Positions 5,232 to 64,000 of a stretch of DNA of 64,000 nt are shown piece after piece. Source of the DNA: Algibacter sp. Its GTDB lineage: Bacteria > Bacteroidota > Bacteroidia > Flavobacteriales > Flavobacteriaceae. The first letter of the stretch is position 1. The number at the start of each line of letters is the position of its first letter. The translations under genes were made by a program, and so were the position numbers. The DNA lies in the NCBI GenBank assembly GCA_050294475.1, contig JBNKOE010000005.1, positions 11,176 through 75,175 on the forward strand, in the 5' to 3' direction. The notes beneath the pieces are model-generated. The model had not been told where the DNA came from. It saw nothing but the letters and a program-made list of their open reading frames with translations, and did not search any database.

Positions 5232-6032
5232 ATGAATACACCTAACAAGGATACAACTAAAAAGAAAAAATTTAACTACGATAAAGAACTAGCCATATTA
5301 CATGAAGATTTAGTTCATCTTCAAGAATGGATAAAGAAACAAGGTTTAAAAGTGGTTATCATTTTTGAAGGTAGAGATGCCTCTGGCAAAGGAGGCACAA
5401 TTAAACGATTTACCGAACCTTTAAACCCTAGAGTTTGTAAAGTAGTAGCTTTAGGCATTCCTACCGAAAAGGAAAAAACACAATGGTATTTTCAACGTTA
5501 TGTACAGTATTTACCAGCAGCAGGCGAAATGGTGCTTTTTGATAGAAGCTGGTACAATAGAGCAGGTGTTGAAAAAGTTATGGGTTTTTGTACTGATGAA
5601 GAGTATAATGAGTTTTTACGCTCTTGCCCTGAGTTTGAGCGTATGTTAGTGCGGTCTGGAATTATTGTTTTAAAATACTGGTTTTCGGTAAGTGATGAAG
5701 AGCAGGAACGGCGTTTTAAAAACCGTATAAGCAATCCATTAAAACGCTGGAAATTTAGTCCAATGGATTTAGAATCGCGTTCCCGTTGGTTAGAATACTC
5801 TAAAGCAAAAGATAATATGTTTGCACATACTGATACCAAACAAGTACCTTGGTTTGTTGTGAATGCCGATAACAAGAAAAAGGCGCGTTTAAATTGTATT
5901 AGCCATGTTTTAAGTCAGATTCCTCATGAAAAAATGGATTTAAAACCTGTTGAACTTCCTGATTTACCAGACTATAAAAGTTATGTGCGACCACCAATAA
6001 ATTATCAAACGTTTGTTCCTGAGAAATATTGA
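5232..6032 (+). CDS. ppk2: Polyphosphate kinase 2
   Basis: FEGRDASGKGGTIKR Walker A, FDRSWYNRAGVE, WKFSPMD. Confidence 0.96.
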   Translation: MNTPNKDTTKKKKFNYDKELAILHEDLVHLQEWIKKQGLKVVIIFEGRDASGKGGTIKRFTEPLNPRVCKVVALGIPTEKEKTQWYFQRYVQYLPAAGEMVLFDRSWYNRAGVEKVMGFCTDEEYNEFLRSCPEFERMLVRSGIIVLKYWFSVSDEEQERRFKNRISNPLKRWKFSPMDLESRSRWLEYSKAKDNMFAHTDTKQVPWFVVNADNKKKARLNCISHVLSQIPHEKMDLKPVELPDLPDYKSYVRPPINYQTFVPEKY

Positions 6033-6077
6033 ATAAACTTGATTTTGTAAAAATTTTCAGCTACCTTCGTTTAACAT
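5762..6077 (+). repeat. Direct repeat copy 1 (ppk2 3' end plus 45 bp downstream)
   Basis: Matches 8308-8623 at offset 2546 with about 6 mismatches in 316 bp by manual comparison. Confidence 0.95.
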
Positions 6078-6146
6078 TAGCTCTAAAAAAAAGAACTTTC
6101 ACTTCCCACCCACTCCAAGAATAATATTTACGAAAAATGAAATTAT

Positions 6147-6175
6147 TGTCCCAAATAATTGCTAAATTTGGGACA
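6147..6175 (+). promoter_or_regulatory. Inverted-repeat operator overlapping the -7 promoter element of the abiE-like operon
   Basis: TGTCCCAAAT-N9-ATTTGGGACA perfect IR; TAAATTTG (TAnnTTTG) at 6163-6170. Confidence 0.7.
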
Positions 6176-6189
6176 TAAATTATCAAACA

Positions 6190-6783
6190 ATGACTAAATC
6201 AGTTCAAACTAGAATTGAAAACGAAATAAAGTCAATGAAAAAAGGGAGTATTCTATTCCCTTCGAACTTTGATGATATGGGAAATGTTGAAGTTGTAAAG
6301 AAATCATTATTACGACTTGAAAACAAAAAATTCTTAGTAAGACTAGCTCATGGAATCTATTTATACCCAAAACAAGACAAGCTTTTAGGGGTTTTATATC
6401 CGACAATAGAAGAAATTGCAATTGCAATTGCTGAACGAGATAAAGCACGAATTATCCCAACTGGAACAACAGCTCTTAATAAATTAGGATTATCAACTCA
6501 AATTCCAATGAATATTGTTTTCTTAACTGACGGAGCTCCAAGAAATATTGTGGTTGGTAAAAGAACAATAAAATTTAAGCGTACATCTCCAAAAAACTTA
6601 GCTGTAAAAGGAGAAATTACAAGTTTAATTATTCAAGCTCTTAAGGATATAGGAAAGGACAATGTAACAGCAGAGCAATTAGAAAAAATTAAAATACATC
6701 TTGAAAAAGAAAAACAAGAAATAATAGAGCATGATGCTAAACTAGCTCCTGTTTGGATATCAAAAATTATGAAGAATAATTAA
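6190..6783 (+). CDS. DUF6088 / AbiEi-like antitoxin (type IV TA)
   Basis: N-terminal wHTH (KSLLRLENKKFLVRLAHGIYLYP), ALNKLGLSTQIP...FLTDG; directly upstream of an AbiEii-type gene. Confidence 0.8.
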   Translation: MTKSVQTRIENEIKSMKKGSILFPSNFDDMGNVEVVKKSLLRLENKKFLVRLAHGIYLYPKQDKLLGVLYPTIEEIAIAIAERDKARIIPTGTTALNKLGLSTQIPMNIVFLTDGAPRNIVVGKRTIKFKRTSPKNLAVKGEITSLIIQALKDIGKDNVTAEQLEKIKIHLEKEKQEIIEHDAKLAPVWISKIMKNN

Positions 6784-6785
6784 AT

Positions 6786-7784
6786 ATGAAAGCGTTTATA
6801 AATCTTAGCAAAAAAGATAAACTGAACATATTCAATCAAGTCAGTGAAAGAACTGGATTTCCATCTTCTGCTGTTGAAAAAGATTGGTGGGTAACTTTAG
6901 CATTAAATATTATTTTTTCATTGTCTTATTCAAACCATATTGTTTTTAAAGGAGGAACATCTTTGAGTAAAGCATGGAATTTAATTGAACGTTTTTCAGA
7001 AGATATCGACTTGGTAATTGATAGAAAACATTTAGGTTTTGAAGGCGAATTAAGTAAAAATCAAGTTAAAAAATTACGTAAAGCATCTTGTTCCTTTATT
7101 GGAAGTGAATTTTATAAAGATATCAATGATGCTTTAATTAAACTAGGTGTTCCAGATTATGAATTAGTTGTTCAAGAAACAAAAGATACAGATACTGATC
7201 CCTTAGTTATTGAATTACGATATAAATCTTTAACAGAAACATCCGACTATTTAAGACCTAGAGTACTAATAGAAGTTAGTGCACGTTCCTTAATGGAGCC
7301 TGTAGAAAACAAAGCCGTTATTTCTATGGTTTCTGAGGAATTTAAAGAACTTCCCTTTGCAGAAACAGAAGTAACAATACCTGTTGTTTCTCCTAAGCGA
7401 ACCTTTTTGGAGAAGATATTTCTATTACATGAAGAGTTCCAAAAAGACACAAAATTTATACGAGTAGAAAGAATGAGCCGACACTTGTATGATTTAGAAA
7501 AACTTATGGATACAATTCACGGTACAGAAGCTTTGAAAGATGTTAAATTATACAATACAATTGTAACACACAGAAAGAACTTTAATGCCGTAAGAGGAAT
7601 TGACTACGCAAACCATAGCCCTCAATTAATTAATATTTCACCACTAGAAGCAACAATTAAAGAATGGAGAAAAGATTATAAGACCATGCAAGAAAGTATG
7701 TTTTATGGAGGTACCATTAGTTTTGATAAACTAATGGAACGCATTGCAGAGTTGAATACTAGAATTAAAACAATTTCATTATGA
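6786..7784 (+). CDS. AbiEii/AbiGii-family nucleotidyltransferase toxin
   Basis: EKDWWV, VFKGGTSLSK, RFSEDIDL, RTFLEKIFLLHE, RHLYDL motifs. Confidence 0.9.
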   Translation: MKAFINLSKKDKLNIFNQVSERTGFPSSAVEKDWWVTLALNIIFSLSYSNHIVFKGGTSLSKAWNLIERFSEDIDLVIDRKHLGFEGELSKNQVKKLRKASCSFIGSEFYKDINDALIKLGVPDYELVVQETKDTDTDPLVIELRYKSLTETSDYLRPRVLIEVSARSLMEPVENKAVISMVSEEFKELPFAETEVTIPVVSPKRTFLEKIFLLHEEFQKDTKFIRVERMSRHLYDLEKLMDTIHGTEALKDVKLYNTIVTHRKNFNAVRGIDYANHSPQLINISPLEATIKEWRKDYKTMQESMFYGGTISFDKLMERIAELNTRIKTISL

Positions 7785-8228
7785 ATGAAAACGAAATAAG
7801 AGAAGAACTCACCAGAGTTATAGCCGAAGATTCTCAAAACATTGATGAAATTCTAAAACTATCACATAAACTTGCTGCTCTTGATAACGACAGTGTCCGA
7901 TTTAGTGTAGATGTAAGTGTTATTGATAGATTTAGGAACAGAATTGGTTGCGAGACACGAAACTGCTGTTTCTAAATTAATTAAAAATTACTATGATGCT
8001 GATGCAAAATCGGCACCAATTAATTTTTTAAATGTAGATAATATTGGAGGAACTTTAATAATAGAAGATAACGGGAATGGAATAACCAGAGACCAATTAG
8101 TTAATGGTTTCATGAAAATTTCTTCTACTTCAAAAATTCATGAACCCGAATCGCCCATTTTTAAAAGAAAAAGAGCCAGTAAAAAGGAATTGAACGATTT
8201 TAAACACAAAGATCGGGTAATAAACTGA
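7781..8228 (+). pseudogene. Frameshifted, truncated GHKL (HATPase_c_3/MORC-like) ATPase
   Basis: Two ORF pieces join as RFSVDVSVIDR/LGTELV..AVSKLIKNYYDADA..IEDNGNG; the expected GKKGIGRF box has decayed to SKKELNDF and the frame stops soon after. Confidence 0.8.
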
Positions 8229-8307
8229 CGATAATAACACAAACAAAGGAGACTAATTTTGCTCTGAAAGTATTTCAGAAGAATTTGGAGGTATTCGGCT
8301 TTACAGA

Positions 8308-8578
8308 AATGGATTTAAAATCGCGTTCCCGTTGGTTAGAATACTCTAAAGCAAAAGACAATATGTTTGCACATACTGATACCAAACAAGTACCTTGGTT
8401 TGTTGTGAATGCCGATAACAAGAAAAAGGCGCGTTTAAATTGTATTAGCCATGTTTTAAATCAGATTCCTCATGAAAAAATGGATTTAAAACCTGTTGAA
8501 CTTCCTGATTTACCAGACTATAAAAGTTATGTGCGACCACCTATAAATTATCAAACGTTTGTTCCTGAGAAATATTGA
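8308..8578 (+). pseudogene. ppk2: ppk2 3' fragment
   Basis: Encodes the last ~89 aa of Ppk2 (MDLKSRSRW...FVPEKY) without the Walker motifs. Confidence 0.9.
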
Positions 8579-8623
8579 ATAAACTTGATTTTGTAAAAAT
8601 TTTCTACTACCTTCGTTTAACAT
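8308..8623 (+). repeat. Direct repeat copy 2 (duplicated ppk2 3' end)
   Basis: About 98% identical to 5762-6077. Confidence 0.95.
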
Positions 8624-8625
8624 CA

Positions 8626-8662
8626 GATATAAAACATTAAAACAATTTCATATCAAGTTGTT
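8626..8662 (+). other. Degenerate attI-like / secondary insertion site
   Basis: ACAATT-TC-ATATCAAGTTG|TT resembles ACAATT-GTCT-ATATCCAATTG|TT at 63762-63784. Confidence 0.55.
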
Positions 8663-9293
8663 GTAACACATTTAACCAAACCAAGAAACTTAATATTTAT
8701 GAAGAAAATTTTACCAATCATTATTGTCGGAATTATAACTGGAGCAATCGGATTTTTTGCTGGAAAAACAGTTGGATATGACGAAGCTGAAAGAATGCAA
8801 AGTTATCGAAGTGTCGAATCTATTAAATCGGACTTAAAACAACGTGAAACTAAAATGATTTCGACTCTATTAAACGGAACTGCACGAATTGAAACGCGAA
8901 ATGAAGGCGGACTTTTTAGCAGTAAAAAATCGAAATATCTGACTGGTAAAATTCTAAACAACGCTTTAGTTGCGAAAGCAAAAGATGTGAAAGTAATTGT
9001 GACATTTTTATCCAAAACAAAATCGGAAATTGGAAAAGCGGAATTTACTATTTACGAATATATTGAACCTGGAAAGTCGCAATCTTTTGAGAAGAAAGTA
9101 AATGTCTCTCAAGATGTGGCTGAATTTAGCTGGAATATTGTAGATGCAAAAGCGGAATAAAAACGTGTTACAACAATGTATAAAAATAATTGCGGTTTAG
9201 TTCTTAATCAAAGGTAGTTACGTGTTTGATACGTCTGAATTTCCTTCGGAAATTCCTCGCACGCAAACCCGCAACTATTCTTATACGAGACCG
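8661..9293 (+). mobile_element. Solo integron-like gene cassette
   Basis: Starts G|TTGTAACAC (8660-8669), the exact reverse complement of GTGTTACAAC (9165-9174) after its stop codon; ends at G9293|TT. Confidence 0.85.
8699..9160 (+). CDS. Cassette-borne hypothetical membrane-anchored protein (C-terminal Ig-like/FxLYD-like domain possible)
   Basis: N-terminal TM segment; GKILNN..AKDVKVIVTF..YEYIEPGKSQSF pattern. Confidence 0.75.
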   Translation: MKKILPIIIVGIITGAIGFFAGKTVGYDEAERMQSYRSVESIKSDLKQRETKMISTLLNGTARIETRNEGGLFSSKKSKYLTGKILNNALVAKAKDVKVIVTFLSKTKSEIGKAEFTIYEYIEPGKSQSFEKKVNVSQDVAEFSWNIVDAKAE

Positions 9294-9300
9294 TTAAACG
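9165..9300 (+). repeat. attC-like site A
   Basis: TTACAAC-AAT-GTATAAAAATAATTGCGG ... CCGCAACTATTCTTATAC-GAGACC-GTTAAAC; 18-bp stem with 2 mismatches; R' fits GTTRRRY. Confidence 0.85.
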
Positions 9301-9303
9301 AAC

Positions 9304-10002
9304 CTAATAAAATTCAGCCTCAAAAAGCACACTAAAATGTTTCAATAACTTTTCTTTAACCTCAGCTTCATCAACCCTTTGTTGCCCTAACTCTACATTT
9401 AAAGAAGTAACGGCTTTACCACGAATACCACAAGGTATAATATTATCAAAATAACCTAAATCGGCATTTACGTTAAGCGCAAAACCATGCATAGTTACCC
9501 AACGGCTAGCTCGTACACCCATAGCACAAATTTTACGAGCAAATGGTGTACCAACATCTAACCAAACACCTGTTTCACCTGAGCTTCTTTCAGCTTTTAA
9601 ACCATATTCGGCAAGCGTAAGAATAATCATTTCTTCAAGTAAGCGTAAGTATTTATGTATATCGGTAAAAAAGTTTTCTAAATCTAAAATTGGATATCCT
9701 ACAATTTGCCCAGGACCATGATAGGTTATATCGCCTCCCCTATTAATTTTGTAAAAAGTAGCTCCTTTTTCGACAAGTTGTTGCTCGTTTAAAAGCAAAT
9801 TAGATAAATCGCCACTTTTACCCAAAGTGTAAACATGAGGATGCTCTACAAATAAAAAATAATTATTAGTCTTTAAATTAGTATTGTCTTTTCTGTTTTT
9901 AATTTTGGCATCAACAATACCTTTAAACAACTGCTCTTGGTATTCCCAAGTTTGTTTGTAATCATTAAAACCTAAATCTTGCAGTTTAATTTGCTTATTC
10001 AT
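9304..10002 (-). CDS. lipB: Lipoyl(octanoyl) transferase
   Basis: [46 protein letters not shown]. Confidence 0.96.
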
Positions 10003-10031
10003 AGGCTGCAAAATTACAATATTTTTATGTT

Positions 10032-10297: not shown

Positions 10298-11350
10298 ATG
10301 TTAAGAAACCTGATTTTGTTGTTATTTTTAATAATGTCTCTTTCTGTAAAAGCACAGTATCATTTTACAGGACGTATAGATAATAAACAATGGCAAAACA
10401 ATGTTTACCTTTCCTTAATTGAAGATTATCGAAAAATTTCTGGGGTTTATTTTGAACAAATTATAGCTAAGGTAAATACCGATAGCTTAGGTTATTTTGA
10501 GTTTTCAGGAAATCAATTAGAAGATGATAACAGAATTTACAGAATTCATGTTGACAATTGTTTTGATAACGAACAAAACAGCAATCATTTTAATGGACAT
10601 TGCAATGATAGTAAAGAAGTTATTTTCATTGCGAAAAACAATGATACCATTGCGTTCCCTTTTTCGTTTGGAAAAGAAATGTTTTGCCAAATTGAATCTA
10701 CCAACAAAAAAGCAACTGCCTTTATTAAAATTGATTCTTTAAAAGATGAAATGAAATTTGCATACAGCGAATTTAGAAGTGAAGCCAACCGAAAACTTAA
10801 TAATAAAAAATGGTTTAAAACATTACAAGATTTTGGTGAAACACAAAACGAACCCATTGCCGAACTTTATACTTATTCATTTTTATCAGATAGAAGAAAC
10901 GATTTTCACAAACATTACCTTGAAGACTTAAAAAACAATCCGTATTATCATAATTTATTAAATCGTTTAATCGAACGCTACCCAAATTCACCTTACACAA
11001 AACAATATCGAGAAGAGTTAAGCTCTGATGAATTTATAATCAATAACAATACATCTACTTCTTCTTTCAACTGGAATTATTTAACTTTCTTTCTATTAGC
11101 AGTTTCGTTAATTATTAATTTTTGGTTTTGGTATACCCAAAAAAAGAATAAAACAATTAGCAAAGCTAAAGAGCAACTTACCAAACAGGAACAAAATATT
11201 CTTAATCTTTTACTTGAAGATAAATCTAATAAAGAAATAGCCGAAGCTGTTTTTGTTAGTGTAAGTACTGTAAAAACACATCTTAACAATATTTACAAAA
11301 AACTGAATGCTCAATCTAGAGACGAAATTAAATCACTATTTAACAGGTAG
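10298..11350 (+). CDS. Membrane-anchored LuxR-type transcriptional regulator
   Basis: Signal peptide, exported domain, TM helix, then LTKQEQNIL..SNKEIAEAVFVSVSTVKTHLNNIYKKL. Confidence 0.85.
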   Translation: MLRNLILLLFLIMSLSVKAQYHFTGRIDNKQWQNNVYLSLIEDYRKISGVYFEQIIAKVNTDSLGYFEFSGNQLEDDNRIYRIHVDNCFDNEQNSNHFNGHCNDSKEVIFIAKNNDTIAFPFSFGKEMFCQIESTNKKATAFIKIDSLKDEMKFAYSEFRSEANRKLNNKKWFKTLQDFGETQNEPIAELYTYSFLSDRRNDFHKHYLEDLKNNPYYHNLLNRLIERYPNSPYTKQYREELSSDEFIINNNTSTSSFNWNYLTFFLLAVSLIINFWFWYTQKKNKTISKAKEQLTKQEQNILNLLLEDKSNKEIAEAVFVSVSTVKTHLNNIYKKLNAQSRDEIKSLFNR

Positions 11351-13859: not shown

Positions 13860-15914
13860 ATGTTTAATAAAATTTACAAAAAGGTAGTCTTACTACCTTT
13901 GGCTTCATTTATAATCACTTCTTTATTAGCTATTTCCGTATGGAACGAAGCTTTGTATACCAACAATCAATTAATTGAAGAAAATGTTCTTCAAACAGGA
14001 CACCTTATTTCAAAAGAGTTTAAAAACATCATAAAATCGGATATCGCTCGACTACAAAATCTCAAAAACAGAATTGAGTTTACTAATGGTATGTATTTTG
14101 AGCACTGGGAAAAAGACGCTAGTATGCTGTTAGAACAAAATTCATCATTCCAATTTTTAGAATGGATTGACAGCACAATGATAGTAAGAAAAATCACTCC
14201 TTTAATTGGAAATGAAAATGCTTTAAATTTAGATATCTCTAAAATAGAATACCGAAGAGATGAATGGATAAAGCATAGTAAAAACAATTTAGTTAATATT
14301 ACTCCATGGGCAAAATTAACACAAGGAGGACACGCTTTTTTAGTAGATATACCTGTTTATTTCCAAAATAATTTCCAAGGCACAATTACAGGTGGTATGG
14401 ACTTTAAAAAAAACTTTAATAAACTAACAACAAGTTTAGAAAACCAATATTCAATAGAATTATGGGATCATAAAAAAACTCTTTTTTATAATTTAAACCA
14501 AAATAACAAACTTAAAACTGGAAAAAATTTTGTTTTTGAAGATTATTTTTTAATAGATAGTTTAGATAATCACAAATGGCTATTAAAAGTTACTCCAAGT
14601 AACGATTTACTTATTTATCAAGCTCAAATCATTACTCATATCGCATTAATTGCAGCATTGATTTTATGTCTTTTAATAAGCTTCTTAATATACTTTTATA
14701 TAAGAACAAAAGAAAATGCAAAACAAGCATTAGCATCAAATATCAAACTTTTAAAAACAAATAAAAAGTTAAACAACGCACGCAATAGAGCTGAAAAAGC
14801 ATCACTTGCCAAAACAGAGTTTTTATCAAACATGAGTCATGAAATAAGAACTCCGCTCCATGCTATAATAGGATTTATTGAACTTTTAAAAAGTAGTACG
14901 CTTAATAAAACCGACAAAGAGTATTTATCATTAATGGAAAAAGCATCAAATAATTTATTAAATATTGTTAATGATATTTTAGATATTGAAAAAATTGAAT
15001 CTGGAAAAATAGAATTAACAGAAGTAAATTTTAATCCATCTAAAAAAATACAAGAATTAATTGATGTTAATCAATTTATATTTTTACAAAAAAATCTTTA
15101 TTTAAAAGCCAATTTCATGAATACTCATTCCATGAATGTTATTGGTGATGAAAACAAATTAATCCAAATAGTTCATAATATTATTAAAAACGGATTAAAA
15201 TTCACAGAATCAGGAGGCGTAACATTAACCTATAATGAAACTATTGTACAAAAAAATCAATTAAGAATAACAATTTCAATTAAAGACACAGGAATTGGTA
15301 TTCATCAAGATAGTTTAAATGCAATCTTTGAAAGATTTACACAAATTGAAAATAGCGTTAAAAAACACTACGAAGGTAGTGGTCTTGGGTTATCTATATG
15401 CCAAATTTTCATTAAAATGATGGGAGGAGAAATTTCAGTTAAAAGTTTGCCTAATGTTGGTACTGAATTTTCATTTGATGTATTTTTCCCAATTTCCGAT
15501 AATCGGAAAAAAGAAATAAATATTGTAAACAAAAAAAATATCAACCTATCGGATTTAAATATTTTAATTGTTGATGACAATCACCTAAATATTATTGTTC
15601 TTAAAAAATTTCTTGAAGACTTTGGAATTAAACCTGACACAGCAAAAAACGGAAAAATTGCTTTAGAAAAATTTATAAAAAAACCATATCAACTTATTTT
15701 TATGGATATTCATATGCCAGAAATGGATGGTTGGGAAGCCACAAAAGAAATTAGAAAAATCAATATGGATGTGATTATTTTTGGATTATCTGCAAATGTA
15801 ACGACTGAAGCTATTGATAAAGCTCTTGAAAATGGCATGAATAACTACCTCTCTAAGCCTTTTAAAAAGGAACATATTTATAAGCTTTTACATTTCCATT
15901 TTAGTAATAATTAA
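13860..15914 (+). CDS. Hybrid sensor histidine kinase/response regulator
   Basis: Two TM segments, FLSNMSHEIRTPL, DTGIG/GSGLGL HATPase, receiver VDD..FMDIHMPEMDG. Confidence 0.93.
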   Translation: MFNKIYKKVVLLPLASFIITSLLAISVWNEALYTNNQLIEENVLQTGHLISKEFKNIIKSDIARLQNLKNRIEFTNGMYFEHWEKDASMLLEQNSSFQFLEWIDSTMIVRKITPLIGNENALNLDISKIEYRRDEWIKHSKNNLVNITPWAKLTQGGHAFLVDIPVYFQNNFQGTITGGMDFKKNFNKLTTSLENQYSIELWDHKKTLFYNLNQNNKLKTGKNFVFEDYFLIDSLDNHKWLLKVTPSNDLLIYQAQIITHIALIAALILCLLISFLIYFYIRTKENAKQALASNIKLLKTNKKLNNARNRAEKASLAKTEFLSNMSHEIRTPLHAIIGFIELLKSSTLNKTDKEYLSLMEKASNNLLNIVNDILDIEKIESGKIELTEVNFNPSKKIQELIDVNQFIFLQKNLYLKANFMNTHSMNVIGDENKLIQIVHNIIKNGLKFTESGGVTLTYNETIVQKNQLRITISIKDTGIGIHQDSLNAIFERFTQIENSVKKHYEGSGLGLSICQIFIKMMGGEISVKSLPNVGTEFSFDVFFPISDNRKKEINIVNKKNINLSDLNILIVDDNHLNIIVLKKFLEDFGIKPDTAKNGKIALEKFIKKPYQLIFMDIHMPEMDGWEATKEIRKINMDVIIFGLSANVTTEAIDKALENGMNNYLSKPFKKEHIYKLLHFHFSNN

Positions 15915-37946: not shown

Positions 37947-38080
37947 GTATGCTAACACAGTATCAAAAATCGCTAATTTTATCCTAAACCAATGTTAGTA
38001 GCTTTGCTTGCTTACGATTTTACTTCGAAAAATACTCGCACACAAACCCGCACTATTCTTATACAATCACGTTGCATGTA
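37947..38080 (+). repeat. attC-like site B (left arm decayed)
   Basis: TGCTAAC-ACA-GTAT... ; right part TACTTCGAAAAATACTCGCACACAAACCCGCACTATTCTTATAC-AATCAC-GTT closely matches site A. Confidence 0.8.
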
Positions 38081-38101
38081 ATTTGAACAAATTAAATATA
38101 A

Positions 38102-39064
38102 ATGAAAAAATTAAATCTGATTTTATTGGTGTTAATCCCAATATTAAGTTTCGGACAAACTGAAAAAGAAACTAACAAAAAGATTTCTGCTGAATTTGAA
38201 AAACACTTCAATTCAGATGAATATCAAAAGATTTTTGACTTGTTTTCGCCTGAAATGAAAAGTGCCTTACCAATTGAACAAACGACTGACTTTTTAAAAG
38301 GACTGAAAAGTCAGACAGGAAAAATTAAAAAAAGGGAATTTATAAAATATGAGCAGACTTATGCCTCTTATAAGACAATCTTTGAACGAACTATTTTTGC
38401 AGTAAATATATCACTTGACAATAATGCAGAAATCAATGGTCTTTTTGTAAAACCTTTTAAAGAAGATAATCTTCCCAAACTTGAAAGAAATAAAACGAAA
38501 CTGGTTTTGCCGTTTAATAGTGAGTGGACAGTAATTTGGGGCGGAGACACTAAAGAATTAAACTATCACGTAGAAAGCGAAGCTCAAAAAAACGCATTCG
38601 ATATTGTAATTACAGACAAAAACGGAAAAACCTTTAAAACAGACGGAAAAACAAACGAAGATTATTATGCTTTTGGAAAAGAATTTATTGCACCTTGTGA
38701 TGCAGAAGTGGTTTTAGCGGTTGACGGAATAAAAGACAACACACCTGGAGAATTAAATCCTATTTACATTCCAGGAAATACTGTAATTTTAAAAACAGAA
38801 AATGACGAATATTTATTCTTTGCTCATTTCAAACAAAATTCGATTGTCGTAAAACAAGGACAAAAAATAAAACAAGGAGAATTATTAGGGCTTTGTGGAA
38901 ATTCCGGAAATTCTTCAGAAGCTCATTTACATTTCCACATTCAAAATGTGGAAGATATAAACAAAGCGACTGGAGTAAAATGTTATTTTGACGAAATAAT
39001 TGTGAATGGAGAATTGAAAAAAGACTATTCGCCAATAAAAGGAGAAGAAATTAAAAACAAATAA
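38102..39064 (+). CDS. Cassette 1: exported M23 peptidase with N-terminal DUF3887-like domain
   Basis: Signal peptide; AFDIV, FAHFKQ, GNSGNSSEAHLHFH. Confidence 0.85.
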   Translation: MKKLNLILLVLIPILSFGQTEKETNKKISAEFEKHFNSDEYQKIFDLFSPEMKSALPIEQTTDFLKGLKSQTGKIKKREFIKYEQTYASYKTIFERTIFAVNISLDNNAEINGLFVKPFKEDNLPKLERNKTKLVLPFNSEWTVIWGGDTKELNYHVESEAQKNAFDIVITDKNGKTFKTDGKTNEDYYAFGKEFIAPCDAEVVLAVDGIKDNTPGELNPIYIPGNTVILKTENDEYLFFAHFKQNSIVVKQGQKIKQGELLGLCGNSGNSSEAHLHFHIQNVEDINKATGVKCYFDEIIVNGELKKDYSPIKGEEIKNK

Positions 39065-39068
39065 AAAC

Positions 39069-39207
39069 TACTGGCAGCAATGGTTATAAGTAATTGCCTG
39101 TTCTCGCCTACTTCTAAAAATACTCGCAGATTTTTAGCTTAGGTGTGTACTTGCAGAGTTAAGTGCTAGACTACGCAACTACTCATAGCCAAACCATTGG
39201 CGTTAAT
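39069..39207 (+). repeat. attC-like site C (both cores mutated)
   Basis: CTGGCAGC-AAT-GGTTATAAGTAATTGC ... GCAACTACTCATAGCC-AAACC-ATTGGCGTTA; AAC changed to AGC and GTT to ATT. Confidence 0.8.
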
Positions 39208-39242
39208 TTTGGAAACAAACTGCAAAATTGAAAACACATAAG

Positions 39243-40343
39243 ATGAAATATTCATTACTAATAATTATCTTGATTAATACAATATTGAGCTATAGTCAAG
39301 AGATAACCATAGAAAAAATAAAATTAACTGAAACAGTTGATAATCGTTATGTTTCTGAAATCCCTAAAGTAAAAGACTTAACCAATAATAAAAATCCTAT
39401 TGTAGAGAAAATTAATTCTCAGATTCTTGATCGTTTTATGATTAATAGCTTTAATCAAAATGAATTAGAAGAATTTAGATGGTACGAAGTTGAATGTTCA
39501 TTTGAGATAAAAGAGAATATTCTTTATATATCATTTGCAGGAGAGTACTATGGAGCATATCCAAATTATGTTGAAGATGAATTTTATTTTGATTTAAAAA
39601 ATGGGGAGCCTCTAAAATTATCCATTATTCCTTTTCAAGCGTTATTCACATTATCTGGATATCTAGATTTTCTTAACAAATATTGGCTTAAAGGAGTTAA
39701 AAAGAAATTTATAGCTGCTATCGAGTGTGCGGAATTTGAGCCTTACTGTAGTTACTATGACATTTATAATTACAGTGTAAAAGATAATAAATTCTCGATT
39801 TCGCTATCAAATGACTGTTATCCTCACGTAGCTCAGGCATGTTCTCCTTATTATGAAATATCTGTAGAACTTGATACTCTTAAACAATACATAAATGAAC
39901 TTGGAAAATATATCCTTTTAGAAAGCAATTATTTATCAGAAACTCCAATTGAAAAGTTTTTAGAAAATGAGAAATTGAAGAAAGAAACAGAAAACAATTT
40001 ATTCATCTTTGGGAAGATTGACGATAAATATCCTTTTAGTATGGCAATAAATATAGATAATCAAGGAGTAATATCTGGTTACTATTATTATGATTTAAAA
40101 CTTCAAAAACTGGTATTGAAAGGACAAAAAAAAGATAATACTATGCTATTAACCGAGACAATTAACAATAAACAAACTGGATTCTTCGAGCTAAATATTA
40201 GCAATACATACAACTCGGAAAGTTTCTTTTTATATGACTCTAACGGAAATGATAAATACTTGATTGGAAAATGGCTGAATTCTGATAAAACGAAGATTCT
40301 TGACATTAAATTTTCAGAAGTAAAAACAAATGATAAAAACTAA
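39243..40343 (+). CDS. Cassette 2: exported hypothetical protein (RsiV/DUF3298-like region possible)
   Basis: Signal peptide; INSQIL...YISFAGEYYGAYP..FYFDLKNG; stop codon overlaps the core TAACGCCAAC. Confidence 0.7.
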   Translation: MKYSLLIIILINTILSYSQEITIEKIKLTETVDNRYVSEIPKVKDLTNNKNPIVEKINSQILDRFMINSFNQNELEEFRWYEVECSFEIKENILYISFAGEYYGAYPNYVEDEFYFDLKNGEPLKLSIIPFQALFTLSGYLDFLNKYWLKGVKKKFIAAIECAEFEPYCSYYDIYNYSVKDNKFSISLSNDCYPHVAQACSPYYEISVELDTLKQYINELGKYILLESNYLSETPIEKFLENEKLKKETENNLFIFGKIDDKYPFSMAINIDNQGVISGYYYYDLKLQKLVLKGQKKDNTMLLTETINNKQTGFFELNISNTYNSESFFLYDSNGNDKYLIGKWLNSDKTKILDIKFSEVKTNDKN

Positions 40344-40455
40344 CGCCAACACTTAGATGTAGTGCATTCGGGTTCTAGCGGCTTGCGAGCGTTTGTAGCT
40401 CGTAAAAAAAGTAGATATAAACTGATTCGCTAAAAAATTAGATTTACTATAACCC
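40341..40455 (+). repeat. attC-like site D, left part only
   Basis: TAACGCCAAC is the reverse complement of the cassette 2 start (G/A)TTGGCGTTA; no right arm or GTT before the next ORF. Confidence 0.6.
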
Positions 40456-40471
40456 TTAAGACTATATAGAA

Positions 40472-41053
40472 ATGCAAAATGAAATTAAATTAACAACAAA
40501 AAAGATTAAAACGGCACAAAAAATAGGTAATGTCTTTTTTGCCATTATACTTATTTTAAATGTCTGGATTATGATTAAACCTTTAATCGTTAATTTTGAT
40601 CTAAGGGATATTGGGGTGTTTAAGCTTCTTAGAAATAATGAGACATATGTAGTACTTGGTGCATTTGTAATATTACTTGGCGTTCGGTTTTTAGTTATTA
40701 ATTTTCTTGCTATATCAGGAGCTAAAATTATAGGAGATAATATAATTATACAAAAACAATTCAAGCCTGATAAGGCTTACTTGTTTAATCAGATAGTTTC
40801 TATTAATTCTATTGGGTATAGAAATGTGCGATTTTTTAAATTATCGATACAAGACAACAATAAAATTAATGAGTGTTTAATATTTAGCACATATTGTTTG
40901 CCAGAATTTGAAAATAAAAATGTAGAACAGGTTTTGATTAGTTTACAAAAAACAGATAGCAGAAATAAAAATAGTAGTATTGAATTACTCAAAAACATAG
41001 ACATAATAAACATATTTTTAGAATTCAAAAAGAGGTTTTCTTTTAGAAAATGA
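40472..41053 (+). CDS. Cassette 3: hypothetical membrane protein
   Basis: Two TM segments; 193-aa ORF between hairpin sites. Confidence 0.65.
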   Translation: MQNEIKLTTKKIKTAQKIGNVFFAIILILNVWIMIKPLIVNFDLRDIGVFKLLRNNETYVVLGAFVILLGVRFLVINFLAISGAKIIGDNIIIQKQFKPDKAYLFNQIVSINSIGYRNVRFFKLSIQDNNKINECLIFSTYCLPEFENKNVEQVLISLQKTDSRNKNSSIELLKNIDIINIFLEFKKRFSFRK

Positions 41054-41145
41054 TTTAAACCCGAATAATTTGTATGTAAGATGTTTACAATTAAGAAATA
41101 TTGAAAACATATAAGTCTTTCATTTCAACATATCGGAATAACAAC

Positions 41146-41282
41146 AAATCGCTAAGTGCTCATAAATAATATGGCAGCCAGTGGTTTGCGAAGGACTGTT
41201 CTTTTGATTATGTTTGATTCAAATTTGGATAGAAGTTTGGTAAAGTGCCAAACTATTCATAGCACAAAACGTTAGGCTCCAT
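41146..41282 (+). repeat. attC-like site E
   Basis: TCGCTAAG-TGCTCATAAATAATATGGC ... GCCAAACTATTCATAGCA-CAAAAC-GTTAGGC; R' fits GTTRRRY; left core damaged. Confidence 0.72.
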
Positions 41283-41313
41283 GCTAAGAGTCGTACACAT
41301 TGATTAAAAATAT

Positions 41314-42354
41314 ATGAATTACCAAAATTATTTACTCACATACCTTGTCTTTATCCTTTTTTGTGGATGTAATTCTAATAGTTCTCAAAATCGAATTAAT
41401 AATAAGACAAAAGAAATTGAATTAATTAAATCTGTAAAAAAAGATACTATTTCATCTGCAATATTGGATAAAGAAAAAATTTCTTCTACAAAAAACACAA
41501 AGATTCAAGACTTACTTGATAAAGTAGAATTATTGCAAGTTCCTTTAACTTATTCTTTTGAAGACACTTTCAATATTAATGCAATAAAAGAAACAAAGCC
41601 TTTATCTGATGAGGTTTTGGATTTACTGAGTGTTGAAAAAATTCACAATGGAGAATATGATTTTAGGGGAAGGCTTTGGTTGTCATTTCAGCTTAATTTG
41701 TCAAAGAATTTTAAAACCTTGGTTTTTTCTATCGAAGATGGTGGTTCGGGCGAGAGTGTACTTGTTAATTATTCAAATGATTTTAAATTTATTGATTATA
41801 GAAGTATTGCTTATGAAGATTATGCAGAAGGATGGTTCTCGTCTAATTCATTGATTGAAAAAAATAGAATGTTTTTATATAAGGATAGCTATACAGATTA
41901 TCCTGCGGAATACGATACAATATGTTTGGTTATAGATGAATATGGAGGAATAGATACCTTACCTGTTGAAAAAACAACCAAAATAGATAATGCAACAGTA
42001 GATGACACATACAATAATGTTCATGAATCAATTAGGGCGTATAAAAAATTAGAAAATATATTAGTAACAGAGAAGTTTCTAATACGGATAGACAGATTAA
42101 ACGATAAAAGTTATCGTTATGCTTCATGGTCGAAAAATCAAAAAGTATCAGAGAAACCAGATTTGGTATTGTTAAAAGGTGAATATTTAAGAGAAGGAAC
42201 TGGTGGTAATTATAGTTATGAATTTAGTAATGGTAACTATCTTTATCGGTGTTCATTTCAGCCGTTAAGAGAAAGTCAGGCTCCTCCTGCAGTTTTAAGA
42301 GTGTACAAAGACGATGAAGAAATTTTATATCAACCTGCAGAAATAATAAAATAA
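41314..42354 (+). CDS. Cassette 4: hypothetical lipoprotein
   Basis: Lipobox-like FCGC; C-terminal IRID...YRYASW...KPDLVL..G..GTGGN.SYEF.NG.Y.Y domain. Confidence 0.72.
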   Translation: MNYQNYLLTYLVFILFCGCNSNSSQNRINNKTKEIELIKSVKKDTISSAILDKEKISSTKNTKIQDLLDKVELLQVPLTYSFEDTFNINAIKETKPLSDEVLDLLSVEKIHNGEYDFRGRLWLSFQLNLSKNFKTLVFSIEDGGSGESVLVNYSNDFKFIDYRSIAYEDYAEGWFSSNSLIEKNRMFLYKDSYTDYPAEYDTICLVIDEYGGIDTLPVEKTTKIDNATVDDTYNNVHESIRAYKKLENILVTEKFLIRIDRLNDKSYRYASWSKNQKVSEKPDLVLLKGEYLREGTGGNYSYEFSNGNYLYRCSFQPLRESQAPPAVLRVYKDDEEILYQPAEIIK

Positions 42355-42360
42355 TGCACG

Positions 42361-42498
42361 AGATTACAACACTTTATAAATTTAATTACGGGTATACTTA
42401 AATTGGCGGCTTTGTCCATTTACTGTTCCTTTTGTTTATCTGAACAAAGAAACGCTTCAAAATTCGCAACGTCAATTTATAAATAATCGTTATGTTTC
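42361..42498 (+). repeat. attC-like site F
   Basis: ATTACAAC-ACT-TTATAAATTTAATTACG ... CGCAACGTCAATTTATAA-ATAATC-GTTATGT. Confidence 0.78.
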
Positions 42499-42530
42499 AT
42501 ATCAAAACGACACTGCAATCATATAACATT

Positions 42531-43114
42531 ATGATAAAATTTAGATTATATACTTTACTAATTTTCATATTAATCCTACAAAATGGATTTGATCAAGGTT
42601 CATTGAAAAAATCATTTCAAGACAAAAACTCATTTAAAATAGCTAAGACAAGGCTGAATGATTTTGGATTAAAGTTTAAAACTCAGGAATCAGAATCTCA
42701 ATTTAAGATAATCTTTAAAGAGAATTCAAAAGTTGATTCTGTAAAGATGTGGAAAAGAATTTAAAACTTGCTTTCACAAAAACTGACCATCCATTAGACG
42801 CCGATTTGCATTTAGCTTTTTCAGTTGCACAAAAAAGAAAAGACACAAAACGGGCTGAACAAATTGCAATCCGATTAGCAAAAGGAGGAGTTCCTTTAAG
42901 ATACTTTAGATATTATAAAAAATCTGATTGGTATGTCAACTTTGTGAAGGATTTTGAAAACTACTCAAATTTTTACAACGAAAATTTCTACCCTGAATTA
43001 AGAGATAAATTTAATTCATTAATAGAAAGAAATATTGAAATTGTTGAGAATGTTTTTGACACTCTATATGAAATTCCGAATAAAGGATTAAGATTAAAAA
43101 ACAAGCTATTTTAA
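42531..43114 (+). pseudogene. Cassette 5: frameshifted exported hypothetical protein
   Basis: ORFs 42531-42764 and 42749-43114 join as ...DSV(K)DVEKNL with a 1-nt shift near 42745; no downstream attC-like site. Confidence 0.65.
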
Positions 43115-43199
43115 GCTAATTTTAAAACAAAGTTTTCATCGTATGGTCTTCCTAATTTTACAATAACAAAGGTCTGTTTTATAAAAACTTAAAATTATT

Positions 43200-63449: not shown

Positions 63450-63740
63450 AATCACAAAGAATACTGTCCCAACAAATATCTATTTGAAGGACAAAAAGGA
63501 AACAAATATAGTGTTACAAGTGTTTTAAATATTATTTCTACAGCAGCTAAAAAAGCTGGAATTTATAAAAAAGTAACACCACACATGCTAAGGCATAGTT
63601 TTGCGACACACCTATTAGAAAACGGAACAGATATTAGGCATATACAAATATTACTAGGACATAGTTCTACTAAAACGACAGAAATTTACACACATGTAGC
63701 AAATAAATCGTTTATGGAAATAAAAGATTTACTATCTTAG
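63450..63740 (+). pseudogene. 5'-truncated tyrosine recombinase (integron-like integrase)
   Basis: Manual translation [19 protein letters not shown]...[42 protein letters not shown]; in-frame TAA at 63447; absent from the ORF track. Confidence 0.9.
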
Positions 63741-63752
63741 TTTTTTATAATG

Positions 63753-63793
63753 TGGATATAGACAATTGTCTATATCCAATTGTTGCCAGTAAT
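63753..63793 (+). other. Candidate attI-like recombination site
   Basis: Perfect 26-bp palindrome TGGATATAGACAATTGTCTATATCCA, then ATTG|TTGCCAGTAAT; G at 63782, 42 nt after the integrase stop. Confidence 0.65.
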
Positions 63794-63807
63794 GTAAACC
63801 AATCTTC

Positions 63808-64000
63808 ATGCTGAAAGGATTATTTAAGAAAAAAACACCTGTAGAAAAGTTTATGGCTCATTTGGATAGAATTTTCCAAACCGAACCTGAATATTACAAA
63901 GAAGAATCAGAAACGGATGGAATTGCTGGAGTTACAAGCATAGTTTATAAAGATATTCCTGAAAAAGGAATGATAACTGGAATTACATACGGACTTTCAC
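63808..64000 (+). CDS. First-cassette ORF, partial; SUFU-like (suppressor-of-fused domain) protein possible
   Basis: MLKGLFKKKTPVEKFMAHLDRIF...YKDIPEKGMITGITYGLS runs off the window; the TYGLS motif suggests SUFU. Confidence 0.55.
   Translation, partial: MLKGLFKKKTPVEKFMAHLDRIFQTEPEYYKEESETDGIAGVTSIVYKDIPEKGMITGITYGLS

Follow-up and report, generated by a model that had tools for sequence, protein, structure and literature searches.

How does a small open reading frame (ORF) with a long palindrome behind it come to lie between ppk2 and lipB, a few bases from the stop codon of the latter? The question is raised by a 64,000-nt stretch of DNA from an Algibacter species (Flavobacteriaceae; contig JBNKOE010000005.1, positions 11,176 to 75,175 of the forward strand), which is called the window in the following. 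Its positions 8661–9293 had been described, from the letters alone, as a solo cassette with both recombination junctions readable; we refer to this description as the original prediction. Integrons are the textbook system of gene capture and are defined by an integrase, IntI, with an additional domain. Hardly any of them are believed to exist in Bacteroidota. The analysis presented here leads us to believe, with a probability of about 0.8, that the unit is a mobile cassette of an integron-like capture system widespread in Flavobacteriaceae, and that it was inserted into a hairpin target, here named E.

The cassette consists of the following parts:

8661–9293, plus strand: inserted cassette of 633 nt, reading TTGTAACAC...GAGACCG
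8661–8669, plus strand: cassette-borne half of its own R' core, TTGTAACAC, which together with the preceding G pairs perfectly with 9165–9174
8699–9160, plus strand: cargo ORF of 153 aa; a membrane helix at the N terminus is followed by a helical linker and then by a domain of the beta-sandwich type
9165–9293, plus strand: attC-like site of the cassette, an imperfect palindrome with a length of 130 nt
9165–9198, plus strand: 5' side of this site, with R'' (9165–9174), spacer AAT and L'' (9178–9198)
9265–9293, plus strand: 3' side of this site, with L' (9265–9286), spacer GAGACC (9287–9292) and crossover G (9293)

The layout originally claimed, i.e., one ORF and one complete hairpin in a unit that ends 10 bp from the lipB stop codon, is present in the sequence in every feature. 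The single ORF is preceded by a leader of 38 nt, GTGTTACAAC (9165–9174) is placed 5 nt past its stop codon, and 10 bases lie between G9293 and the stop codon of lipB (9304–9306). The imperfect stem built from 9178–9198 and 9265–9286 surrounds a small perfect hairpin in the central region (9237–9255); in the whole site one bulge and two A·C positions are seen.

The two ends of the unit belong together. GTTGTAACAC (8660–8669), which comprises the preceding G and the first nine bases of the unit, is the exact reverse complement of GTGTTACAAC in 10/10 positions, whereas the right flank, G↓TTAAACGAA (9293–9302; the arrow marks the crossover point), matches this core in 4/10 positions only. That the left end pairs with its own 3' core and the right-hand GTTAAAC does not had been read correctly. 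Deletion of the unit in silico yields ...TATCAAGTTG↓TTAAACGAACC, again as had been claimed, and the limits of the cassette are set by the site E that is rebuilt by this deletion. The end pairing exceeds chance: all cassettes that were examined in related arrays are built alike, with complementary ends that are specific to the cassette. Both junctions are crossed without any difference by contigs of four independent sequencing runs (X1–X4).

What, then, is the target? Joining 8612–8660 to 9294–9302 rebuilds a 58-nt hairpin that extends from TTCGTTTAAC to G↓TTAAACGAA. In full, E is ordered TTCGTTTAAC, ATCA, GATATAAAAC, ATTAAAAC, AATTTCATATC, AAGTT, G↓TTAAACGAA. It folds into an outer stem of 10 bp and an inner stem with one bulged base, and its pieces are found in the window as follows:

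8585–8615, plus strand: promoter-like motif of E, with TTG (8585–8587), a 20-nt spacer and TACCTTCG (8608–8615), directed into the cassette
8612–8660, plus strand: left part of E, beginning with R'' TTCGTTTAAC (8612–8621) and a spacer (8622–8625)
8626–8654, plus strand: inner region of the left part, with L'' GATATAAAAC (8626–8635), loop ATTAAAAC (8636–8643) and L' AATTTCATATC (8644–8654)
8655–8660, plus strand: end of the left part, with spacer (8655–8659) and crossover G (8660)
9294–9302, plus strand: right part of E, TTAAACGAA, which with G9293 reads GTTAAACGAA and is complementary to 8612–8621

The right part stops 1 nt short of the lipB stop codon. The right-hand GTTAAAC, originally assigned to the target, is the right arm of this conserved site, which is itself not an arbitrary sequence.

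E also exists intact. Metagenome contigs were scanned with the pattern TTCGTTTAACNNNNGATA-N18-42-GTTAAACGAA, which fixes the outer stem and leaves the inner one free. Intact E was detected at 24 metagenomic loci, each time as a 57–62-nt hairpin built in the same way; the copy in L087 has almost the same sequence as the site rebuilt from the window. In the inner L stem of these 24 loci, four pairs are changed on both sides, 0/500 shuffles match the covariation score, and the signal falls away in controls with slid partners. The claim that the cassette was inserted by site-specific recombination is borne out by this empty site, intact at 24 loci and with the junction exactly as predicted. In viral contigs the scan yielded 0 matches to intact E, and Rfam had no match for the window, the split site or intact E. 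A Flavo-1 RNA (RF01705, 42.7 bits) at 14502–14591 (minus strand) of L087 lies about 100 nt from the intact E without overlapping it and is probably unrelated.

The number of copies can be estimated from sequencing depth. E-left is covered at 12–16 times the genome depth in three of the source study's samples, and the additional E-left contigs carry the genome's own depth; it follows that there are roughly a dozen (about 13) E-left copies per genome. The other copies leave the window sequence at 8662–8666, i.e., essentially at the junction. A motif cTTGACTTTGT..N..CTAACTTCG precedes nearly every intact E and does so in one orientation only. It resembles what we take to be the –33/–7 promoter consensus of Bacteroidetes/Flavobacterium (TTG / TAnnTTTG), and it probably acts as a promoter. 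The intact sites are intergenic, between ordinary core genes, often right behind the stop codon of a convergent gene, for which E may serve as terminator. A function of E as promoter plus RNA leader was considered and rejected, since the gene downstream is on the opposite strand in most intact E loci.

Occupied copies of E are broken at the same place. In Lacinutrix jangbogonensis, the E adjoining the lipB stop codon holds a different cassette with the same breakpoints; in Mariniflexile sp. AS56 (L001), E heads an array and is followed by TTGCCAGTAAT as the cassette start, which is also the start of the first cassette behind the attI-like site near the window end; further cases are found in L015 (one) and L102 (three). 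The breakpoints that had been predicted for the window are seen at the same junction base in all these independent sites. Because E is intact at 24 metagenomic loci, is multi-copy in the genome and has a promoter motif attached, the target is to be regarded as a conserved, structured, attC/attI-like landing pad and not as a random site.

The unit 8661–9293 is mobile. Its ORF has 12 homologues with 54–95% identity in unrelated genomic neighbourhoods; a syntenic core gene, as which it might have turned out, it is not. The search for the ORF in other cassette arrays, proposed originally, proved successful. One homologue, 94% identical in amino acids, resides inside an array of Mariniflexile sp. 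AS56 with the same left end, G↓TTGTAACAC, and the core GTGCTACAAC; the next cassette has mutually pairing ends of its own (GTTGGCAAC / GTTGCCAAC). The cassette recurs, about 98% identical, in two unrelated metagenomes; the contigs there cover exactly 8660–9198 and 8660–9283 and stop at the cassette limits. In metagenome X5 the region 9048–9415, which holds the 3' site, is covered about 2000–3000x versus about 115–125x across the ORF, and a different cassette start (GGCAACAAGCT) comes after the site. Within the array of Mariniflexile sp. AS56, an insertion sequence with a DDE_Tnp_1 transposase (L001, 4385–5899) is located immediately before the cassette homologue. As to the function of the cargo, the 153-aa protein had no match in Pfam, NCBIfam or PADLOC. 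Its AF2 model (pLDDT 81) found generic beta-sandwich matches only in a fold search, and the protein is predicted to be a membrane-anchored beta-sandwich protein.

The site of the cassette belongs to a family. In five Flavobacteriaceae loci (L109–L113), from Bizionia (with a frameshifted gene), Seonamhaeicola, Xanthomarina, a 3.3-Mb assembly and Sabulilitoribacter, sites of this family divide the cassettes downstream of a 376-aa tyrosine recombinase. The layout is the same in 5/5: a small gene is divergent from the recombinase, which is followed by a hairpin with a few nt and G↓TT and then by co-oriented small ORFs with palindromic sites between them. Most array sites measure 127–134 nt (L109–L112), so that the window site with its 130 nt is typical; the array sites of L113 were confirmed with the same site profiles. 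The consensus of the family is R''(n6YAAC)-3 nt-GTATAAAATTAATTGC...GCAACTAATCTTATAC-6 nt-G↓TT, and profiles of its 5' and 3' modules match the window cassette site with E-values of 7.6e-06 and 4.5e-06, respectively. In the cores AAC and GTT are invariant and the rest varies (R' is GTTGTAA in the window and, e.g., GTTGGCA or GTTACCC elsewhere). The GTTRRRY/RYYYAAC rule is fully obeyed by E alone (GTTTAAC / GTTAAAC); the classical core is otherwise reduced to GTTR.

In the arrays L109–L112, R'' matches the left end of its own cassette in 8.1/10 positions on average, with a run of 7.5, versus 5.2 and 3.2 for the downstream flank, and the rule of own-end pairing at G↓TT holds in 9/11 array cassettes. 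Such pairing would be the signature of circular excision and re-insertion at G↓TT. When 12 reconstituted sites were analysed with RNAalifold, the predicted fold of the bottom strand comprised an R box of 11 bp and an L stem of 16 bp together with an asymmetric internal loop; compensatory double changes are seen in 17 of the 27 predicted pairs. Three conserved G·T pairs exist on the bottom strand only and would turn into A·C mismatches on the other strand. In 17/18 sites it is the bottom strand that folds more stably (Wilcoxon p = 0.0003); for the reconstituted window site the values are –26.5 kcal/mol for the bottom and –22.9 for the top strand. Most likely, the folded single bottom strand is the recombination substrate, as in integron attC. 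Regarding extrahelical bases, the family has conserved G·T positions and not fixed bulges; E has one bulged base.

E itself gives the impression of a short-form member of this family, since one array site of L112 is a 59-nt short form with the loop CATTAAAACG that is also seen in E, and since the attI hairpins have the GATA...TATC-5 nt-G↓TT layout of E.

The 376-aa recombinase deserves a closer look. More than 7900 full-length relatives are matched at E < 1e-30, nearly all of exactly 376 aa, and an alignment of 26 of them from different genera contains zero indels. The invariant residues R235/R236, K260–K263, H324, R327, H350 and Y359 would, by our own reading, occupy the expected positions of the catalytic set. 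The alignment with VchIntIA (2a3v) falls into two parts, 26 residues facing 69, and the integron-integrase model TIGR02249 scores 200.6 bits, which is below its cutoff of 265. With the archaeal XerA (4a8e), the enzyme aligns continuously (E 1.2e-36), and the NCBIfam XerA model is passed with 233 bits versus a cutoff of 220. In a fold comparison XerA and VchIntIA rank about equal. By these alignments and scores, the enzyme is Xer/IntI-like and lacks the IntI-specific additional domain; the model scores and the XerA alignment also explain its NCBI name, "site-specific tyrosine recombinase/integron integrase". At the N terminus it is extended by about 105 aa, with an extra folded domain at about residues 1–75. 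The small gene upstream encodes a protein of 125–130 aa with an N-terminal CxxC...CxxxC, is always divergent and just upstream of the recombinase, and is 69–86% identical among four compared. This protein may be a partner or regulator of the recombinase. Pfam has no family for it nor for the extra N-terminal domain. Its gene is located at:

L109 6797–7189, minus strand: partner gene
L110 9539–9916, minus strand: partner gene
L111 9534–9911, minus strand: partner gene
L112 9547–9930, minus strand: partner gene
L113 7530–7910, minus strand: partner gene

The window itself harbours two further cassette loci:

37947–43150, plus strand: second cassette array, between a gene with a TPM domain and der/engA (site-profile matches; Pfam on flanking genes)
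63453–63739, plus strand: decayed 3' remnant of the recombinase, with stop codons upstream of the readable part
63754–63794, plus strand: attI-like site, a perfect 24-nt hairpin GGATATAGACAATTGTCTATATCC (63754–63777), AATT and G↓TTGCCAGTAATG

The label "solo" holds in so far as the cassette is the sole one at the site next to lipB; for the window as a whole it does not. In the second array the junctions are at 38071, 39196 (A↓TT), 41271 and 42489, some sites are decayed, and one cargo protein consists of DUF3887 and Peptidase_M23, the others matching no family. A motif at its distal end, AAAAAACAAGC(T/A)ATTTTAAGCTAATTTT(A/G)AAACAAAGTT (43096–43150), recurs at 10380–10440 of the Bizionia locus L109, where it likewise marks the distal end of the array; two Mariniflexile sites (L001) display a partly related motif, AAAAAACAAG, after R''. 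The remnant was recognised by tblastn with the L110 recombinase, to which it is 64% identical across residues 281–375. Behind it TTGCCAGTAATG opens a first cassette whose ORF runs past the window end. The same succession of a palindromic or near-palindromic hairpin, a few nt and G↓TT is found behind the intact recombinase genes of L110 and L112, and a similar one is seen in L109, L111 and L113. Parts of 63453–64000 have 2–12x the genome depth in the source runs; the remnant is multi-copy in the source metagenomes, where less decayed copies are also present. The closest relatives of the remnant (P0013–P0132) are all short ORFs of 68–160 aa, often 124 aa, with the same internal Met start, and in Bizionia hallyeonensis the recombinase gene is split by a 1-nt frameshift at GLRRGE/VLNL. 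Truncated or frameshifted 3' ends of the recombinase gene are suggested to be common and conserved.

Put together, the events at the ppk2–lipB locus can be envisaged as follows. The cassette is a promoterless ORF with a 130-nt imperfect palindrome of the type R''-spacer-L''...L'-spacer-R'. In its circular form the last G (9293) would meet TTGTAACAC (8661–8669), which creates an R' that pairs perfectly with R'' (9165–9174). A tyrosine recombinase would then perform one crossover between the G↓TT of the cassette site and the G↓TT of E between ppk2 and lipB, and would thereby split E into 8612–8660 and 9294–9302. The ORF came to lie directly downstream of the outward-facing promoter motif of E. 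The probable catalyst is the 376-aa Xer/IntI-like recombinase that heads the arrays in relatives and of which the window keeps only the decayed copy at 63.45–63.74 kb.

The neighbouring genes are ordinary ones:

5232–6032, plus strand: ppk2, core gene (Pfam PPK2, E 2.2e-105)
9304–10011, minus strand: lipB (octanoyltransferase), core gene (Pfam LplA-B_cat, E 3.1e-49)

The best relative of lipB, with 89%, is that of Seonamhaeicola aphaedonensis (Flavobacteriaceae). A 317-nt repeat, 98% identical between 5762–6078 and 8308–8624, contains the ppk2 3' end, the promoter motif and R'' of E. Its copies bracket a 2.2-kb island (6079–8307) with an AbiEi/AbiEii pair (6190–7784) and fragments of a broken HATPase_c_3 gene (7781–8228). 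The second ppk2 fragment (the 8308 copy) diverges at its 5' end, as if derived from another allele. The junction TTCGTTTAACAT/TAGCTCT is also met in the salt-marsh metagenome X8. The ppk2–lipB interval is variable among relatives: ppk2 near lipB is kept in only two of them, L019 and L007, and in the former, Mariniflexile fucanivorans, the interval (6695–7672) accommodates two small lipoprotein genes oriented like ppk2. The GTTTAAC next to lipB in Confluentibacter (L012) was dropped as a candidate, no clear site being seen there.

A number of observations speak against the insertion of a mobile cassette as outlined above. An alignment of the ppk2–lipB region had been proposed originally as a way to find the empty allele; among 80 lipB loci of relatives an orthologous empty allele was not found, the collections searched holding no close relative. 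The interval of Mariniflexile fucanivorans has no detectable E or attC-like site, and in the 80 relatives the E motif next to lipB is absent except for L016 and a partial match in L012. A contig joining 8660 to 9294, the excision joint, was not found in X1–X4, contigs being blind to rare forms. The recombinase copy of the window is a pseudogene, and the less decayed copies of the metagenomes are not assignable to this genome. The recombinase lacks the additional domain of IntI, with which classical integrases contact extrahelical bases of a folded site. As regards the promoter, the RNA runs contain only fragments of E-like and attC-like repeats from other organisms and no usable transcription starts. 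Finally, there is the array behind psd and an ACBP-like gene in L102 (minus strand, 1–2400; also in L085), which has three ORFs. Behind each of them lies a composite site, about 190 nt long, for which the scheme above does not fully account: a standard site, represented by its 5' half, is joined to a spacer that contains a ACGTAGAACTACGT hairpin, and the promoter motif and E-left come next. At the end of the array, E is intact.

Could a classical integron do the same? An ordinary integron cassette might have been inserted off-target by a classical IntI encoded elsewhere, with the 376-aa Xer-like gene as a bystander. The site indeed has hallmarks of integrons, namely AAC...G↓TT ends, pairing of the cassette with its own end, a spacer that stays unpaired, a centre that varies and a better fold of the bottom strand, and off-target insertion by IntI is documented (bioRxiv 10.1101/2022.09.11.507474; PMC8618304). 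The site family, however, begins directly behind the gene of the 376-aa recombinase in 5/5 loci, and the GTTRRRY core is not kept in the window or in other members. Further, IntI1 (used as a probe only) was run by tblastn against 1.18 Mb, including the arrays of L001, L003, L016, L068 and L102; the single match, at 63543–63698 of the window, was the Xer-like remnant. In surveys with IntegronFinder, nothing but In0 elements was reported from Bacteroidetes, apart from one complete integron of Salinibacter (PMC9024848). We consider this explanation unlikely. Homologous recombination by RecA, or gene conversion, between repeated E/attC sequences would do without a crossover at G↓TT. The sites have long conserved stretches in common, E-left is repeated in the genome as described, and the neighbouring AbiE island is bracketed by the 317-nt repeat. 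Yet the incoming cassette and the target share no E sequence, occupied E sites that are independent of one another have the same junction base, and homologous exchange would not maintain complementary, cassette-specific ends, which makes this possibility very improbable.

Two other possibilities do without a recombination of hairpin sites. The segment 8612–9302 could be a transposon or MITE-like element that carries the ORF and is bounded by terminal inverted repeats, perfect over 10 bp (TTCGTTTAAC / GTTAAACGAA); many copies of the element family do exist. The repeats, however, are 38 nt apart in 24 intact copies that contain no ORF, the ORF and its palindrome occur without them in Mariniflexile and other metagenomes, and a target-site duplication and a transposase are both absent; the chances of this explanation are slim indeed. 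One may also think of a non-mobile, lineage-specific small gene with a terminator hairpin, its end complementarity being fortuitous. The stability of the 161-nt in-situ stretch, when folded alone, is in fact ordinary (z = –1.17). Against such an accident stand the non-syntenic homologues, the 98%-identical cassette elsewhere, the covariation in the site family and the intact rebuilt target at other places, and we can hardly believe in it.

The similarity of the flavobacterial system to integrons is evident. As in integron cassettes with their attC sites (59-base elements, VCR type), a promoterless ORF is followed by an imperfect palindrome at its 3' end, and the crossover is at G↓TT. As in attC, the site of a cassette becomes complete only with that cassette's first bases, and it shows an R box, an unpaired spacer, an L stem, a variable centre and a better fold of the bottom strand. 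As in VCR arrays, the cassettes are co-oriented, the sites are of near-uniform length (127–134 nt here), and contigs often break inside the arrays. The differences are equally clear. Unlike integron integrases, the flavobacterial recombinase is without the IntI additional domain and stays below the integron-integrase cutoff; its system has the extra N-terminal domain of about 105 aa and the conserved divergent small gene. In contrast to class 1 integrons, recombinase and cassettes point the same way, and the attI, a hairpin, follows immediately on the stop codon of the recombinase gene. Unlike in attC, only GTTR of the core is kept, and the strand asymmetry results from G·T / A·C positions and not from clear extrahelical bases. 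In classical integrons it is the additional domain of IntI that contacts the extrahelical bases.

Cassettes outside of integron platforms are known as CALIN, single attC or attG (Cury 2016; PMC9024848; PMC8618304; bioRxiv 10.1101/2022.09.11.507474). The window cassette resembles CALIN and attG in being a single cassette far from the integrase gene, with a crossover at GTT and an expression that would rely on the promoter of the target. Unlike the loose GTT targets of attG, E is a conserved, structured, multi-copy hairpin of 58 nt with its own promoter motif, and it resembles both a short attC (the loop CATTAAAACG in common with the array site of L112) and an attI hairpin. To Xer systems (XerA of archaea, XerH, XerS) the relation is seen in the continuous XerA alignment, the passed XerA model and the site adjoining the gene. 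Unlike dif or IMEX, the sites are hairpins of 58–250 nt with cassette-specific ends, many per genome, and arrays are formed rather than one integrated element; a dif-type unit (about 28 bp, two 11-bp arms, a 6–8-bp centre) is absent at the junctions, where the partner of R' is 40–240 nt away. Archaeal integrons (PMC9668308) likewise have attI immediately downstream of the integrase gene and attC arrays outside the Proteobacteria, but the archaeal IntIs keep the additional domain and the flavobacterial enzyme does not. This domain, situated around patch III, defines IntI according to Messier and Roy (2001), as quoted in PMC9668308. A literature search did not find a description of such a system in Flavobacteria, most subscription journals being outside its coverage.

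The wider proposition is that of a family-wide analogue of the integron: the 376-aa enzyme with its small, cysteine-rich CxxC partner, a hairpin attI, sites of 127–134 nt used as bottom strands, and about a dozen promoter-bearing 58-nt pads per genome, with the window cassette as an off-platform capture whose two junctions are both intact. We regard the odds for and against this proposition as evenly balanced. If it is true, an abundant marine family runs the strategy of integrons, i.e., single-strand hairpins, G↓TT and arrays, with a differently built recombinase, and the additional domain would not be the sole route to the recombination of hairpin sites. The cassette site and the rebuilt E offer a directly testable pair of substrates. 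The system would account for the large pool of small unknown flavobacterial genes and for the assembly breaks at arrays, and the dispersed pads with their promoter motif would be a novel means by which captured genes are expressed beside core genes, far from the platform.

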